Assembly (NCBI GenBank): GCA_964552045.1
Contig: CAZKFF010000001.1
Span: forward strand, 120 to 64,119
Length of the DNA stretch: 64,000 nt
Direction: 5' to 3'
Source of the DNA: an uncultured Candidatus Saccharibacteria bacterium
GTDB lineage: Bacteria > Patescibacteriota > Minisyncoccia > Phycocordibacterales > UBA918
Below, piece after piece: positions 3,006 through 7,295 of the stretch. The first letter of the stretch is position 1, and each line of letters begins with the position of its first letter. The notes beneath the pieces were generated by a model. It was not told where the DNA came from, made no database searches, and saw only the letters and a program-made list of their open reading frames with translations. A program made the position numbers and the translations under genes.

Positions 3006-3950
3006 TTACAGAACCTTACCTTTTGACCAGTACTCCTCAAACGCACTGCGAGCATCATCATAATTTTCTGACAAACTCACTTCTGATCGTTGTCCAGCAG
3101 ATATTGCATTCACGTTTGGTACGTTTCTCAGATACCCAACACCATCGAGAATCCATCGATCATGTGTGTCTCGTATCAATTTACTGTCTATAGTTGCCCA
3201 GGTTGTTTTGATACCTTTGTTTTCCATCTCCTGTTTGAACCGTTTGAAGTACCTTCGTACGTCGCTTCCCAAATTTACGTCTCCCATGTCCAAAGATAGA
3301 ATGCGTATTTCTTTTATTTTCTCTGCATCAGCAACACTCCATAACCATTCCAGCGCCTCTTTCTGGAAATGTTTATCGAGCCATGAAATGGATCCCTCAC
3401 ATTCTCCAAGTACTCGCTTTATCCAGAGGATGTTAGAGAATGGTCGCGATGGGTCAATAAAGATATTTTTTGGCGTATGAGGAGTATCGGGTGAGATAAG
3501 TACTTTCACAGCCCTAGTTTTCTTGTTGTAGGTGATAACACCTGCGTAATTCAAGAAGTCTAGGAAATGCGTCAATGGCTCGTTGGAATCATAGAACCAA
3601 AAGCCCGTAGCCTTTAGGACCGTAAGTACTTGATCAACAGTTACGTCCGATACTCCCCACAAATATTGCTGTAATGCAATCGTGGGAGGAAAGGATAGAA
3701 GCAAGTGCCTTAACATCTCGGTTTCCTCTCCATCACGGCGGATGTACAGCGACTCAAATATCGCTCGTCCGGCCTCAGAAAGCTCACCTGTAGCACCGAC
3801 ATCAAAAACTCCAAGCTCTTCCCAGAAAGTATAGTCGTCTCCCAGTTCATACCGATCTACTGAACCGTTCTCACCAGCCGCCTGTATATAAGGCAGCATT
3901 TTCTTCCAGTTATTCTGTGGCAGAAGTGTTGTCGTTTCCGTGTTTATCAT
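3006..3950 (-). CDS. hypothetical protein (island protein B), second gene of a two-gene operon of unknown function
   Basis: 314-aa ORF with AT-rich island composition. It overlaps the upstream ORF by 41 nt. An alternative start at Met-18 (3899) would leave a 10-nt gap. The C-terminal segment THDRWILDGVGYLRNVPNVN loosely resembles a PLD-type HxK..D..N signature but is not canonical. Confidence 0.55.
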   Translation of the reverse strand: MINTETTTLLPQNNWKKMLPYIQAAGENGSVDRYELGDDYTFWEELGVFDVGATGELSEAGRAIFESLYIRRDGEETEMLRHLLLSFPPTIALQQYLWGVSDVTVDQVLTVLKATGFWFYDSNEPLTHFLDFLNYAGVITYNKKTRAVKVLISPDTPHTPKNIFIDPSRPFSNILWIKRVLGECEGSISWLDKHFQKEALEWLWSVADAEKIKEIRILSLDMGDVNLGSDVRRYFKRFKQEMENKGIKTTWATIDSKLIRDTHDRWILDGVGYLRNVPNVNAISAGQRSEVSLSENYDDARSAFEEYWSKGKVL

Positions 3951-4707
3951 TTTCCTTTGGCTTTGCGTCTGTTACTGCTTTGTCCAGTGCTGCGATCTCA
4001 CTTCCAAACTTTCCGATGGCAAATAAGTACGCGATTTCTGTAGGGTAAGAAATTACAATACCGCTCGGTAACTCGACTTCCTGCATCCCCGTTTTAACTT
4101 GACGTTCTGACTTCTCTGCTCCAAACCGCTGTGATTGCGAGTGTTCACTATTGTCGGTTTCTTCGTCTGTCGTATCTGCCGTGTCTTTAGAGATGGCCTC
4201 ACTAACAATGCCGTTAGAGTACAAGCCTGCAAATTCAAGAGAATCCTTGAATGTTTGCACTACAGTATCGGCAACCTTGCGGCCTATTCCGAATTGTCTG
4301 ACAAGAATGTTGTTAAGAGTAGGAGGAACTGCACGTCCCGAATATTCACTGATGAGAGACTCAAACAACTTCGGATGCTTCGCCGCCTCTAATATTGCAG
4401 CATTTTTCTCCTCCTCTGTTGTATAATGAAGTATCTGCTCAGCAAGATCAGAGTTCTTATATGCGTTACCTTTGCGCTCTAAGAGTCCGTAATGTACCAG
4501 AGCTGCAACTTTAGGGGCTGAAGCACCGCTAAGCGTTGCGTAACCCATAGAAACAGCTGCAGAAGCCCGGTCAAACTGAGATTTAGGATAAGCAGCGATA
4601 AGTTTCTTACTGTACTCAACAGCTTCACCAAGAGGGATGGCGGGGTACGCTGTGCTCCGTTCTCTCTTTGTAGTCTTCTTCGCCTCTGTATTTTGATTGT
4701 CAGTCAT
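3910..4707 (-). CDS. hypothetical protein (island protein A), first gene of the two-gene operon
   Basis: 265 aa from MTDNQNTEAKK; the track ORF extends 7 codons further. Acidic C-terminal tail and no recognisable motif. Co-oriented with and overlapping the downstream ORF. Confidence 0.55.
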   Translation of the reverse strand: MTDNQNTEAKKTTKRERSTAYPAIPLGEAVEYSKKLIAAYPKSQFDRASAAVSMGYATLSGASAPKVAALVHYGLLERKGNAYKNSDLAEQILHYTTEEEKNAAILEAAKHPKLFESLISEYSGRAVPPTLNNILVRQFGIGRKVADTVVQTFKDSLEFAGLYSNGIVSEAISKDTADTTDEETDNSEHSQSQRFGAEKSERQVKTGMQEVELPSGIVISYPTEIAYLFAIGKFGSEIAALDKAVTDAKPKENDKHGNDNTSATE

Positions 4708-4914
4708 AATAATTTTATTTAATCCCATTCCAGTTGGGAGTTTTGTAATACTTAAAATATACTCTCTGTACTATATGCTTGTCAAGCGCAATCTTTACTT
4801 TGTGAAAAATGCCAGAATAACCCAGTAAAGTAGCCATTTTTATATCTATAAGAAACGAGTTACAAAGCGACATGCACCATATTTTTTGTAGTACAGAAAA
4901 GTCTTTGGGTACTT

Positions 4915-5775
4915 TGTAACATGGGGAGCAACCCCGCCCGCCAGGGCGGGGTTTGTGCGCGCACGGGTGGGAGCCGTGAACACGGCATGGGGCAAGCACA
5001 TAAGGCAGCGCCGTCGGGCTATTTCCGCTAGGAGCGTCCAGGGCTAAAGGACGAGCGCCGACGTTAATTTGCAATACAGAAATCTAGCAGCGGAAGCGAC
5101 ACCACAAACGCGCTATTGAAAACGAGGATGGGGGTTGTGCGAGGGCGGACTCCGAAGGCACGTTAAACGAAGCCGCAAAGCGCAAGTAAAGTACAAACGC
5201 AATGAAGCACTGAAGACGCTAATGAATCACTGCGAGGAGGAGCCCGACGCTGGGGGAAGGATTCCTTCCTTCCCCCAATCTAGTGTCCTGCCTTTTCCAC
5301 CGCCCCGCAGGGCGGAATGGAAAAGAAAAGCAGGACCCATAGGCACCTAGGCGCTCGTAGCCCTAGCGGAAATAGCCCGAGGCGGATGCCGAGGGTGCCT
5401 CCCTTTAGCCTCTGGACTACCATAGAAATCTAGGAAATGGCACGAGGCACCGAATTGGAAGCGCCTTCCTTCTTCCACGTTTAGTGGAAGAACGCCCGGA
5501 AGAAAAAATCCTTTTCCATATCCAAAAAAATATCCCCCGCCAAAAAAGAAAAAGGAATACTGCAAAGGATTTTTCTGGAGGGCGTACCGCCGGAACGGAG
5601 TGGAGGCGGAAGGAGGCGCGTATCGAGTTACCACGCAAGCGGAGCGTACGATTCGGTCTCAAGCCACCACGCGCTCCGCGCGGGCGGATCACTTCTCGCT
5701 ACGCTCGAAAAAAGTTCGGATTTCATCATATAGACGGAGCTGAGGAATTTAGGAACCCCGCGCACGCGGGGTTTT
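4915..5775. ncRNA. candidate structured non-coding RNA region of unassigned class (GC-rich, ORF-poor, multiple stable hairpins)
   Basis: No credible ORF, only overlapping Arg-rich junk ORFs on both strands. Hairpins at 4926-4956 (10 bp), 5273-5297 (10 bp), 5306-5322 and 5468-5486. An intrinsic terminator on the + strand at about 5748-5775 closes the region. Weak, inconclusive similarity to the RNase P P4 region (AGAACGCCCGGAAGA). Confidence 0.25.
5748..5775 (+). terminator. rho-independent terminator (aaccccgcgcacgcggggttttt)
   Basis: 8-bp GC-rich stem with a 4-nt loop, followed by a run of 5 T. Confidence 0.6.
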
Positions 5776-5832
5776 TAAATTTCTGAAGCTCCGGCGGAGA
5801 AAGCAACCGAGTTGCTTTCGTCAGGATTCGAA

Positions 5833-5878
5833 AGGAATTTGCATATTTCCGCTATTCCTAATGCGGAAATGCAAATTC
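5833..5878. repeat. long imperfect inverted repeat (17-19 bp arms, 10-nt spacer): ggaatttgcatatttccgc-tattcctaat-gcggaaatgcaaattcc
   Basis: Read directly from the sequence. The right arm is the reverse complement of the left arm apart from a 2-nt bulge. Confidence 0.7.
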
Positions 5879-5951
5879 CCGGGCAGGTAAATCTTATGAA
5901 TGTAACGAATTAGATTTGGACGCCGAATCCTGCCGCCGGAGCCAAACAGGG

Positions 5952-5986
5952 CGAGACTTCCGATTTCGGGAGTCTTTTTCTTTATT
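5952..5986 (+). terminator. rho-independent terminator-like hairpin (agacttccg-attt-cgggagtct) followed by ttttctttattt
   Basis: 9-bp stem containing one G-U pair, then a T-rich tract. Lies about 140 nt upstream of the 6123 gene. Confidence 0.4.
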
Positions 5987-6122
5987 TGAACCGTCATTGA
6001 AGAATTCGAAAATCTGAATGGATGATTTTATTGACTGGATCCTGTAAGTTTCGAAATTCATGCCGCCCGTCCAATTCACACTGATCCAGTAAAAAGACGG
6101 TTTTGTGTGCTATTTTTAAGCC

Positions 6123-7295
6123 ATGAGGAAATTCTTCCTGCTGTTTGGGTTTCTCGCACTCCTTCTTTTGTTGTCAGCGCTGTATCTTCTCTGGGGAAGA
6201 TCACCCGCGGAAACACTGCCCACTTATTTTTCATATACTGATGAAGAACTTCAGATGATCCGTGGTCTCCATTCAGATAAGGCCATCACATTTGAAGATC
6301 TCCAGGCATGGGACGACGCCATCTTCAATCTGATCCAGGAGAACAAGACCGGTACAACAAAGGCCTCGCAGATATATACGTATCTTCTGGTGGCACAGCG
6401 CGATGCAGCTTTCATATCCTATAACGATACCGGCAAATTCCGCGGGAGCATTGATGCAGTTTCCAAGGGGGTTATCTGCGCATTCATGCCTGATGATTGC
6501 CTCTATATCACAACAGACAGCGATGCATATTCTGATGCGCTCGCTCAGATCGTGCTCGCTAAGGTCGAAAAGCGAATCGCGGATGACCAAAGCCAGCTGC
6601 ATACATATCCGCTGCAGTCAGAGGATCCCTATTGGTTGAACAAACGCGATGAAGCATTCAACGGACAGGACGTCGGATCATGGATGCCCTGGTCGATCGC
6701 CTCAGTTGCTGATTTCAATCTGCCTCCCCCGCCGGAGCTTGGTTCGGATGAACGAGCGCAGCAGCTGCAGGAAGTGCGGGATGCGGTTGACGGCATCACT
6801 GACGAACAGAAGCGTGCTGTTATCTATTGGGCTGACGGCCCGGGCACGAAGACCGCAGCGGCACAATGGCTCGAATTGGCAACTACGCACATGAAGGAAA
6901 CTGGCATGACCGACCTCCGTAGAATATTCATGATCAGATCGATCCTTGAGATGGCCATTGCTGACACGATCATCGCTTCTCACGATGTCAAATACACCTA
7001 CTGGGAGCGGCGCCCGGGCTCGCTCGATGCATCAATCGTGACGGTCATACCGACTCCGAACCATCCGAGCTATCCGTCAAACAGCGCAGCGATCGGCATG
7101 ACTGCGGCAACGGTCATGGCATACTTCTTCCCTGAAAAGTCATCAGAATGGCTCAGCATTGCCGAGGAAATAGGCAATACGCGCGTATGGTCCGGCATAC
7201 ACTTCCCACTTGACGTACAGGAGGGCTATGCACAGGGGAAAAAGATCGCCGAAGCGGTGCTCCAGAAAGAATTCGGGGACAGCCAGCCTCAGTAA
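6123..7295 (+). CDS. secreted PAP2-superfamily protein (acid phosphatase / vanadium-haloperoxidase-like)
   Basis: N-terminal signal/TM segment. PAP2 motifs present: KYTYWERRP (KX6RP), PSYPS and RVWSGIHFPLD (RX5HX3D). Confidence 0.7.
   Translation: MRKFFLLFGFLALLLLLSALYLLWGRSPAETLPTYFSYTDEELQMIRGLHSDKAITFEDLQAWDDAIFNLIQENKTGTTKASQIYTYLLVAQRDAAFISYNDTGKFRGSIDAVSKGVICAFMPDDCLYITTDSDAYSDALAQIVLAKVEKRIADDQSQLHTYPLQSEDPYWLNKRDEAFNGQDVGSWMPWSIASVADFNLPPPPELGSDERAQQLQEVRDAVDGITDEQKRAVIYWADGPGTKTAAAQWLELATTHMKETGMTDLRRIFMIRSILEMAIADTIIASHDVKYTYWERRPGSLDASIVTVIPTPNHPSYPSNSAAIGMTAATVMAYFFPEKSSEWLSIAEEIGNTRVWSGIHFPLDVQEGYAQGKKIAEAVLQKEFGDSQPQ

Follow-up and report, generated by a model that had tools for sequence, protein, structure and literature searches.

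A large structured RNA element at the border of a low-GC island in a Saccharibacteria contig, with inverted short forms bracketing variable gene blocks in related loci

Introduction

Few large, intricately folded RNAs without an assigned function have been described from bacteria (GOLLD, ROOL, OLE, raiA and HEARO), and each of them opened new biology. Here, we describe an 817-nt element that appears to be of this kind, located at 4924–5740 on the + strand of a 64,000-nt stretch of contig CAZKFF010000001.1 (assembly GCA_964552045.1) from an uncultured Candidatus Saccharibacteria bacterium; this whole stretch is hereafter called the window. The Candidate Phyla Radiation (CPR, Patescibacteria) accounts for a large share of bacterial diversity, the genomes of its members are so small that 0.8 kb of non-coding sequence is hard to accommodate, and a few Saccharibacteria are now genetically tractable; for these reasons, the element is unexpected and at the same time amenable to testing. 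It equals GOLLD in size and retains 75–89% nucleotide identity across metagenome-assembled genomes (MAGs) labelled as different CPR classes.

GOLLD, ROOL and OLE are described as large ‘ornate’ bacterial non-coding RNAs of unknown function (Rfam; cryo-electron microscopy, PMC12286853). The present element resembles them in size (0.6–0.8 kb), in its many covariation-supported helices and long invariant unpaired stretches, and in having no conserved partner gene adjoining. It often lies beside tRNA genes and variable or mobile DNA, where GOLLD and ROOL are also often placed. The element differs in that the covariance models of these RNAs do not match it, in its occurrence in CPR/Patescibacteria with 0 matches in viral contigs (GOLLD, ROOL and OLE being of Firmicutes, rumen or lake phage contexts), in abutting an upstream stop codon, and in the bracketing of gene blocks by long and short forms in inverted orientation. 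We know of no other RNA with inverted long and short forms that bracket variable, defence-rich gene blocks.

Other known systems share part of this arrangement. As with transfer-messenger RNA (tmRNA) and tRNA genes that serve as integration targets, a conserved RNA gene stands exactly at the end of a low-GC defence island, and tRNA-Asn genes or relics adjoin it; however, the islands lie on the 5′ side of the element instead of the 3′ side, the duplicated RNA piece is inverted and not direct, no integrase was seen, and the element has neither a tRNA-like domain nor a tag open reading frame (ORF). In the omega/reRNA at the right end of IS200/605 elements (TnpB, IscB; HEARO), the scaffold stops exactly at the element boundary and continues into the flank. 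Similarly, the ~250-nt structured short form described here stops precisely at a conserved boundary, with continuation into a variable flank before a terminator, and dispersed copies are found at the ends of variable DNA, but no TnpB, IscB or TnpA gene was found nearby among the Pfam matches listed, the HEARO model gives no match, the long form has three times the size, and long inverted repeats take the place of subterminal hairpins at the ends. Class C group II introns share the GUGCG after a GC-rich hairpin, the ORF-less length of ~0.8 kb, the multicopy state and the strong structure; in contrast to them, the element shows no domain V/VI match, no intron-encoded protein and no six-domain wheel, and the preceding hairpin and GGGAGC belong to the conserved element itself. 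As in composite transposons and invertible segments, inverted repeats of 200–330 bp flank 3–10 kb of cargo that includes restriction-modification genes, but the repeat is a covariation-supported RNA module and not an insertion sequence, an extra 570-nt RNA domain lies inside one end only, and neither a transposase or invertase in the cargo nor a target duplication was found.

Results and discussion

A conserved element within the 4729–6122 gap

The original prediction placed a large structured non-coding RNA in a 1.4-kb GC-rich gap at 4729–6122, at an island boundary. Such an RNA is supported by ~45 other loci with sharp ends, compensatory pair changes and a terminator after the element. Scans for ORFs, promoters and base composition divide the gap into four parts, 4729–4923, 4924–5779, 5780–5990 and 5991–6122, of which 4924–5779 is the unit of interest, instead of the whole gap. 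The GC-richness holds for 4924–5740 (56.3% GC), the only GC-rich part, but not for the entire gap, which has 49.8% GC compared with 52.1% in the rest of the window; 4729–4923 (33% GC) and 5991–6122 (39% GC) are AT-rich. As stated at the outset, the gap encodes no credible protein: its ORFs, which overlap one another on the two strands, do not exceed 119 aa, and none has a Pfam match at E≤1. The two hairpins originally named were recovered at 4930–4953 and 5251–5277, together with many further ones, and two + strand terminator-like hairpins were likewise found where proposed, at 5753–5773 and 5953–5976, each followed by a T-run. The island boundary was confirmed by the end, at 4907, of homology to another copy of an island module. 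The element and its terminator comprise the following features.

4924–5740, + strand: long form, the conserved structured RNA element, 817 nt (homology, covariation)
4930–4953, + strand: P1 hairpin AACCCCGCCC-GCCA-GGGCGGGGTT, directly after GGGAGC
5011–5383, + strand: central domain, with a 24-bp closing helix, a second helix and hairpins (RNAalifold, 20 homologues)
5455–5621, + strand: multi-helix junction of the 3′ module, with closing helix Ha, hairpin Hb, long stem Hc/Hd and hairpin He
5497–5740, + strand: 3′ module, equivalent to the stand-alone ‘short form’
5751–5779, + strand: terminator-like hairpin CCCCGCG-CA-CGCGGGG followed by TTTTT, with an A/T-rich extension (−28.1 kcal/mol; inverted repeat I3)

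The terminator hairpin starts 10 nt past the 3′ end of the element, in agreement with the long + strand transcript predicted to end near 5775, and is symmetric enough for action in both directions.

Homologues and their ends

A Logan contig (L004) is 88% identical to window 3017–4907 and then diverges, and its far end holds a 24-mer identical to window 5504–5527. This 24-mer was found without mismatch in six GTDB genomes, five of which are labelled CPR (Roizmanbacteria, Saccharibacteria with two contigs of one MAG, Paceibacteria and Kaiserbacteria), and a 20-mer from the 5′ half of the element recovered 36 metagenome contigs, all with the element. By blastn and nhmmer, full-length or contig-truncated copies were detected in all retrieved genomes and contigs, nearly all of them labelled CPR/Patescibacteria, and contig ends truncate about half of the copies. 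The Saccharibacteria contig L012 aligns with 4924–5740 from end to end (84% identity by blastn; 88% mean column identity). Same-strain assemblies, reached via neighbouring genes, yielded only short Logan contigs, one of which begins inside the element at 5711. Two motif scans of 2.9 million viral contigs gave 0 matches, and blastn of the region against phage and plasmid collections gave none. The PAP2 gene downstream of the gap has no relative in GTDB genomes; because its nearest homologues (L002 and L003, ~50% identical) lack a similar gap on their 5′ side, the RNA is not a fixed companion of PAP2. The RpoD encoded in the window is 92–94% identical, over 82–85% of its length, to proteins named Parcubacteria and Kaiserbacteria, its nearest named relatives, which places the window itself in a CPR genome that is Parcubacteria/Kaiserbacteria-like by this protein.

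All copies start at GGGAG(C/U), nearly all of them continuing with hairpin P1 and UGUGCGCGCAC. The 3′ end of the element reads ...GTTCGGATTTCATCATATAGACGGAGC, and the sequences diverge beyond it: copies of the window subfamily end at ...GUUCGGAUUUCAUCAUAUAGACGGAGC, and those of other subfamilies at a related ...AUCAC. Full-length copies of 817–857 nt have the same ends (L012, L018, L032 and L016), and an invariant 49-nt block lies inside the element. Terminators consisting of a hairpin and a T-run were found 3′ of the element in the window, L012, L013, L025, L030 and L034, with a variable 10–35 nt between the conserved 3′ boundary and the terminator.

Folding and covariation

The folding of 4924–5780 was far more stable than that of shuffled sequences (z = −11.8 for the + strand and −9.0 for the − strand). 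The RNAalifold consensus of 20 homologues, which covers the 5′ two-thirds of the element, has 96 pairs, with 98.2% of cells paired. Changes on both sides were observed for 26 of these 96 pairs, compared with 11.4±1.7 in shuffles (0/500) and 2–7 with slid partners; helices 10–12 hold 19 pairs with changes on both sides. A 24-bp long-range helix, 5011–5035 with 5360–5383, closes a multi-hairpin domain, inside which lie a second helix (5053–5059 with 5350–5356), an invariant hairpin (5036–5052) and two covarying hairpins (5251–5277 and 5286–5335). The inverted repeat I1 of this central domain was found independently of RNAalifold. Long unpaired stretches are invariant, and single G-C to G-U changes are tolerated. 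At the P1 position, a hairpin of at least 6 bp is present in 30 of 31 distinct copies, with stems unrelated in sequence and with either a tetraloop or a 13-nt loop containing CCUCC.

The 3′ third is misaligned by MAFFT because whole helices covary there. The stem of hairpin 5497–5577, AAAAAUCCUUU/AAAGGAUUUUU, is CCCCGUUUUCCGC/GCGGAAACGGGG in the sister subfamily; in its loop (5522–5556), an A-rich/CCCCC motif is conserved while the stem covaries completely between subfamilies. Nine homologues that were folded singly gave the same multi-helix junction formed by different base pairs. A covariance model (R1, 5455–5621) finds 35 copies, and in their alignment, which is fitted to this model, 36 of the 38 pairs of the 3′ junction are compensatory, compared with 24.9 in shuffles (0/500) and 14–20 in slid controls; the covariation score was 0.406 against 0.139. 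Thus, both the folding and the covariation checks came out in favour of a structured RNA. Because the covariation is strong and the ORFs are conserved neither in frame nor in position, 4924–5740 is very probably a selected RNA fold and a copy of a real, conserved, structured RNA element.

Several details of individual loops were observed besides. The 13-nt P1 loop, AUUCCUCCUGUCCUU, is found in one subfamily (L034, L035, L037, L025 and L028) where the window has a tetraloop, and its CCUCC resembles the 3′ end of 16S rRNA. An invariant unpaired GCGAGGAGGAGCC is located at 5238–5250. The P1 loop and GCGAGGAGGAGCC could pair with each other, with ribosomes or with mRNAs. In L043 (~1230–1290), the loop corresponding to 5522–5556 is the exact reverse complement with the stem kept, and the covariance model scores this copy on both strands, which suggests a DNA inversion between the two stem arms. 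L040 contains two diverged tandem copies (385–960 and 1588–2412, ~71% identical), the first of which is without P1 and lies behind a terminator; a hairpin loop carries a GGGGG run in the first copy and CCCCCC in the second, so that mutual pairing is possible.

Relation to known RNA classes and coding potential

With the 4227 models of Rfam 15, cmscan gave no match on the window at the gathering score, and at E≤10 on 4600–6300 only chance-level matches to terminator-like hairpins. The element also had no match in 16 homologous loci at the gathering score and in five loci at E≤1, while the searches of homologous loci did detect nearby tRNAs and group I introns. Therefore, tmRNA, RNase P, GOLLD, ROOL, OLE, HEARO, raiA and group I and II introns were rejected as identities, none of their Rfam 15 models matching. 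The suggestion of a tmRNA or RNase P RNA failed on further points. ARAGORN detected 0 tRNA or tmRNA genes in the whole window, and 0 in 5700–6150 with the intron option, while as a positive control it found a tRNA-Asn with a 250-nt intron in L010. Of the tmRNA traits, neither a tRNA-like domain nor a tag ORF was found in the element. For the RNase P core (P4, CR-I to CR-V), no match to RNaseP_bact_a/b appeared in the window (E≤10) or in the homologous loci, and the segment AGAACGCCCGGAAGA, which had been described as P4-like, consists of the 3′ strand of one hairpin and the start of the next helix and is swapped for another sequence in the sister subfamily. Group II domain V/VI (Rfam Intron_gpII) matched neither the window at E≤10 nor the homologues. 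The GUGCG at 4955–4959 agrees with the GUGYG found at the 5′ boundary of group II introns, but it appears to be internal to the element, since conservation starts 31 nt earlier at GGGAGC and takes in P1.

A decayed pseudogene, offered as an alternative at the outset, and a small protein gene were both rejected, as ORFs in the element have no Pfam match and differ between copies in position and frame. In keeping with an ornate non-coding RNA, the element exceeds 500 nt (817 nt) and has compensatory helices, conserved unpaired regions and no coding capacity. Literature searches for a described large CPR RNA did not find the element, the only relevant paper being one on group I introns. The element thus probably belongs to an RNA family not yet described.

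Short forms and inverted pairs

The 3′ ~245 nt (window 5497–5740) also stand alone, in L010, L011, L013 and L014, and these 3′-only copies start at the base of hairpin 5497–5577. The short forms in L004 and L010 lie behind a promoter-like TATAAT. In eight loci (L015, L019, L020, L025, L033, L035, L039 and L049), nhmmer and the covariance model detected a short form 3–10 kb upstream of the long form and in inverted orientation. The identity between the 3′ modules of short and long forms was 99.0% in L025, 99.7% in L035, 100% in L020 and 88% in L019, and the pair on L010 and L012, separate contigs of one MAG, was 100% identical; between loci, copies are 72–98% identical, mostly 77–93%. The inverted copies of L035 share a lineage-specific insertion.

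The genes between the members of a pair nearly all read towards the long form. This cargo is variable, including type I and II restriction-modification genes, helicases, SMODS proteins and ATPases, but also PurL, transketolase-like and glutamate dehydrogenase genes, among others. Genes upstream of the element encode HsdR, type ISP and other restriction enzymes, methylase and specificity subunits, OLD/AbiEii-type ATPases and a SMODS protein; a reverse transcriptase gene lies upstream in L030/L041, ArgRS lies directly upstream in three loci, and other upstream genes are ordinary metabolic ones. No protein family was common to more than three loci in an all-against-all blastp of 320 flanking ORFs. 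Pfam searches of ~90 neighbouring and cargo ORFs found no transposase, integrase, TnpB/IscB, Y1 transposase or Cas among the 25 commonest families listed, several ORFs having no Pfam match. No target-site duplication was found at the outer ends of L025 and L035. L025, L033 and L035 match one another on the outer side of the short form and differ in their cargo, a pattern resembling a single hot spot whose contents can be swapped. Hairpin 5497–5577 is a focus of rearrangement: short forms start there, the inverted copies of L014 abut there, and both ends of contig L015 stop within it.

No inverted partner was found inside the 64-kb window. An XRE regulator is the first gene after the inverted short form in L035, L004 and L010; the window likewise opens with an XRE gene (31–219), and its inverted partner is therefore predicted to lie just left of the window start.

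Beyond the 3′ end of the inverted short form, a conserved GC-rich stretch (...AGCGCAAAATCTGGGCGCGCCGAAGGCGCGCTGTATGG...) is common to L025 (after 11010), L035 (after 11832) and L033 (before 676). No Rfam match was obtained for it in L035, and it is possibly a further conserved RNA or a continuation of the element.

Strand and transcription

The nearest upstream ORF is co-directional with the element in 29 of 34 loci, and its stop lies no more than 35 nt before GGGAG in 24 of the 34, often at 0–6 nt, with no terminator between the stop and GGGAGC; the upstream neighbour is divergent in five loci, including the window. The direction of the upstream genes and the terminators downstream favour the + strand as the RNA strand. 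The RNA would usually be made from this strand by read-through from the gene that ends 0–35 nt upstream, and in the window, where the neighbour is divergent, presumably from its own weak start site; the ends of the transcript would be set by trimming at GGGAGC and by termination at 5751–5779.

Possible role of the element

We tentatively propose, at less than even odds, that the element is an ‘ornate’ trans-acting RNA, a scaffold or ribonucleoprotein component, the strongly conserved modules of which double as fixed borders or homology arms of a hot spot for cargo exchange between CPR lineages. The cargo in the window would then be the fused methylase/specificity gene and two genes without assigned function, and a role as border or homology arm would account for the low-GC island ending 17 nt short of the RNA. 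A number of observations weigh against this proposal. The homologues were fished with exact 20–24-mers, so that the sample is biased to conserved subfamilies, and the 3′ covariation counts rest on a model-fitted alignment. The bracket architecture is seen only in homologous loci, the partner of the window copy, if any, being outside the 64 kb, and the MAG taxonomy labels and some contig-end inverted repeats (L015) are possibly assembly or binning artefacts. Folding energies and counts of G-U against A-C do not separate the strands (the + strand is more stable in 11 of 19 copies, and the consensus folds of both strands are rich in G-U pairs), so that the strand argument rests on context, and no convincing promoter was found 5′ of 4924 in the window, with its divergent neighbour. 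In addition, DNA mobility explains the near-identical inverted copies, the near-identity across classes and the frequent contig breaks inside the element no less well than a housekeeping RNA does.

The element might instead be the structured end of a mobile DNA that carries cargo in the manner of a transposon, with the inverted ~245-bp modules as terminal inverted repeats, an enzyme encoded elsewhere and an embedded guide or regulatory RNA comparable to the omega/reRNA of IS200/605 elements. The inverted copies are 99–100% identical in three of the four loci measured and within one MAG, near-identity extends across MAGs labelled Saccharibacteria, Paceibacteria and Kaiserbacteria, and such a DNA end would fit the sharp 3′ boundary with 10–35 variable nt before the terminator, the cutting of about half of the copies by contig ends and the richness of the cargo in defence genes. 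We nevertheless regard this explanation as somewhat improbable, given that no transposase, integrase, TnpB/IscB or Cas appeared among the ~90 ORFs (25 commonest Pfam families listed), that L025 and L035 show no target-site duplication at their outer ends, that the cargo includes PurL, transketolase-like and glutamate dehydrogenase genes, that ArgRS is directly upstream in three loci and that 2.9 million viral contigs gave 0 motif matches; the shared outer flank and differing cargo of L025, L033 and L035 also point to one chromosomal hot spot over independent insertions. It is unlikely that long and inverted short forms together define a portable slot in which defence and metabolic operons are exchanged among distant CPR lineages, an RNA-bounded cassette system in which the RNA, or hairpin 5497–5577 as DNA, not only supplies homology but takes part in recombination as a guide, ribozyme or recombinase landing site; if true, a large RNA would replace the transposase gene at the core of a new type of platform for mobile cargo. 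A DNA-level repeat without RNA function, such as a repetitive extragenic palindrome, a miniature inverted-repeat transposable element-like palindrome or a recombination site with its hairpins as cruciforms, would account for the rearrangements centred on hairpin 5497–5577, namely the starts of the 3′-only copies, the abutting inverted copies of L014, the reverse-complemented loop of L043 and the ends of contig L015. Yet compensatory changes keep helices with strands ~350 nt apart (5011–5035 with 5360–5383), multi-branch junctions are maintained, which duplex DNA has no reason to conserve, and the invariance of long unpaired stretches and the tolerance of single G-C to G-U changes also make a purely DNA-level function very unlikely.

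A cis-acting role was also considered, in which the element is a 3′ untranslated part of the upstream operon that acts as a stabiliser against 3′ exonucleases, a platform for processing or termination, or an insulator. The short distance from the upstream same-strand stop in 24 of 34 loci (0–35 nt before GGGAGC), the lack of a terminator between them and the terminator 3′ of the element agree with this role. On the other hand, a near-invariant multi-domain fold of 820 nt exceeds the needs of a stabiliser or terminator, the upstream genes are mutually unrelated, the upstream gene is divergent in the window and four other loci, stand-alone short forms lie behind a promoter-like TATAAT in L004 and L010, and the first copy of L040 follows a terminator; hence, such a role appears quite unlikely. 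A further explanation is a diverged representative of one of the known classes (tmRNA, RNase P RNA, group II intron or GOLLD/ROOL/OLE) or a decayed protein gene, which the tmRNA-like position at an island border near tRNA genes and the GOLLD-like size might suggest. GUGCG is the 5′ consensus of group II introns, class C members of which insert after terminator hairpins, and this motif follows P1 at 4955–4959, a reverse transcriptase gene being located upstream in L030/L041. However, no Rfam model of these classes matched the window at E≤10 or five homologues at E≤1, in searches that detected group I introns and tRNAs nearby; ARAGORN found no tmRNA; GGGAGC and P1 are part of the conserved unit and not an exon; and there is no conserved ORF or Pfam match. 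This last explanation is largely refuted and scarcely credible. The element would also account for the recurrence of assembly breaks in CPR metagenome bins.

The remainder of the gap and the neighbouring island

The other features of the gap and its right-hand neighbour are as follows.

4729–4907, − strand: promoter/upstream region of the divergent 272-aa island gene and end of island ‘module B’
4785–4756, − strand: sigma70-like promoter TTGACA-18-TATATT of the divergent 272-aa gene (promoter scan)
5788–5945, + strand: cloverleaf-like fold, unconserved (low confidence)
5953–5986, + strand: second intrinsic-terminator-like hairpin and T-run (scan: 10-bp stem, loop of 4, tail TTTCTTTATT)
5987–6122, + strand: AT-rich stretch 5′ of the PAP2-family gene (39% GC)
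6123–7295, + strand: PAP2-family gene (Pfam PAP2 match)

The second, ~200-nt transcript that the original prediction placed before the second terminator (5780–5986) was not substantiated: 5780–5990 folds very stably (z = −8.3 for the + strand and −7.0 for the − strand), but 5741–6122 has no homologue in any fetched locus. The segment ~5876–5945, which ends in CCTGC-CGCCGGA-G-CCA, aligns weakly to the tRNA-Asn genes of L011 and L010, where intact tRNA-Asn genes flank the element (that of L010 with a group I intron). With low confidence, we take the second fold to be a decayed relic of tRNA-Asn type, instead of a second RNA gene.

At the element end, the 3′ flanks of L014 and L018 read GACGGAGC followed by CAAACAG. 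The window splits this end, with GACGGAGC at 5733–5740 and CCGGAGC-CAAACAG at 5936–5948, and the split resembles an insertion of ~200 nt (5741–5940) with a GGAGC repeat. L010 (4681–5003) and L024 (7758–8013) carry group I introns next to the element, on the other strand. The 250-nt group I intron of L010 interrupts the tRNA-Asn gene, in agreement with a publication describing such introns within tRNA genes of Patescibacteria (PMC13011429).

The island to the left of the element is modular. Its part at 129–2979, with a 232-aa ORF and a fused N6-methylase/specificity gene, is 92% identical to a cassette of L007 (8300–11149), a CPR-like contig with an unrelated context. A direct repeat of ~25 nt, CGCACTGCGCTCATCCACTTAGAGA, flanks the cassette in L007, and there the left end cuts an XRE gene mid-way. 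A tandem/palindromic TGCAAAATTTGCACAATGCAAAATTTGCATTGTGCA motif at 2925–2960, just 5′ of the methylase start and conserved in L007, looks like an operator of the type bound by restriction-modification controller proteins. The part at 3017–4907 corresponds to L004 31–1919 (88% identity), where it stands beside a module of helix-turn-helix, EcoRI-type methylase and GmrSD-HNH genes. The 314-aa and 272-aa genes of the island have no Pfam or PADLOC match; together they resemble a two-gene unit that is mobile, possibly a defence pair not yet described.

To the right of the gap, the PAP2/haloperoxidase-like gene has no close relative, the nearest being 52% identical. The window is also rich in signalling genes for a CPR genome (7305–12173 and elsewhere), among them those for a 4HB_MCP/HAMP protein and for a MASE1 histidine kinase that has a receiver domain.

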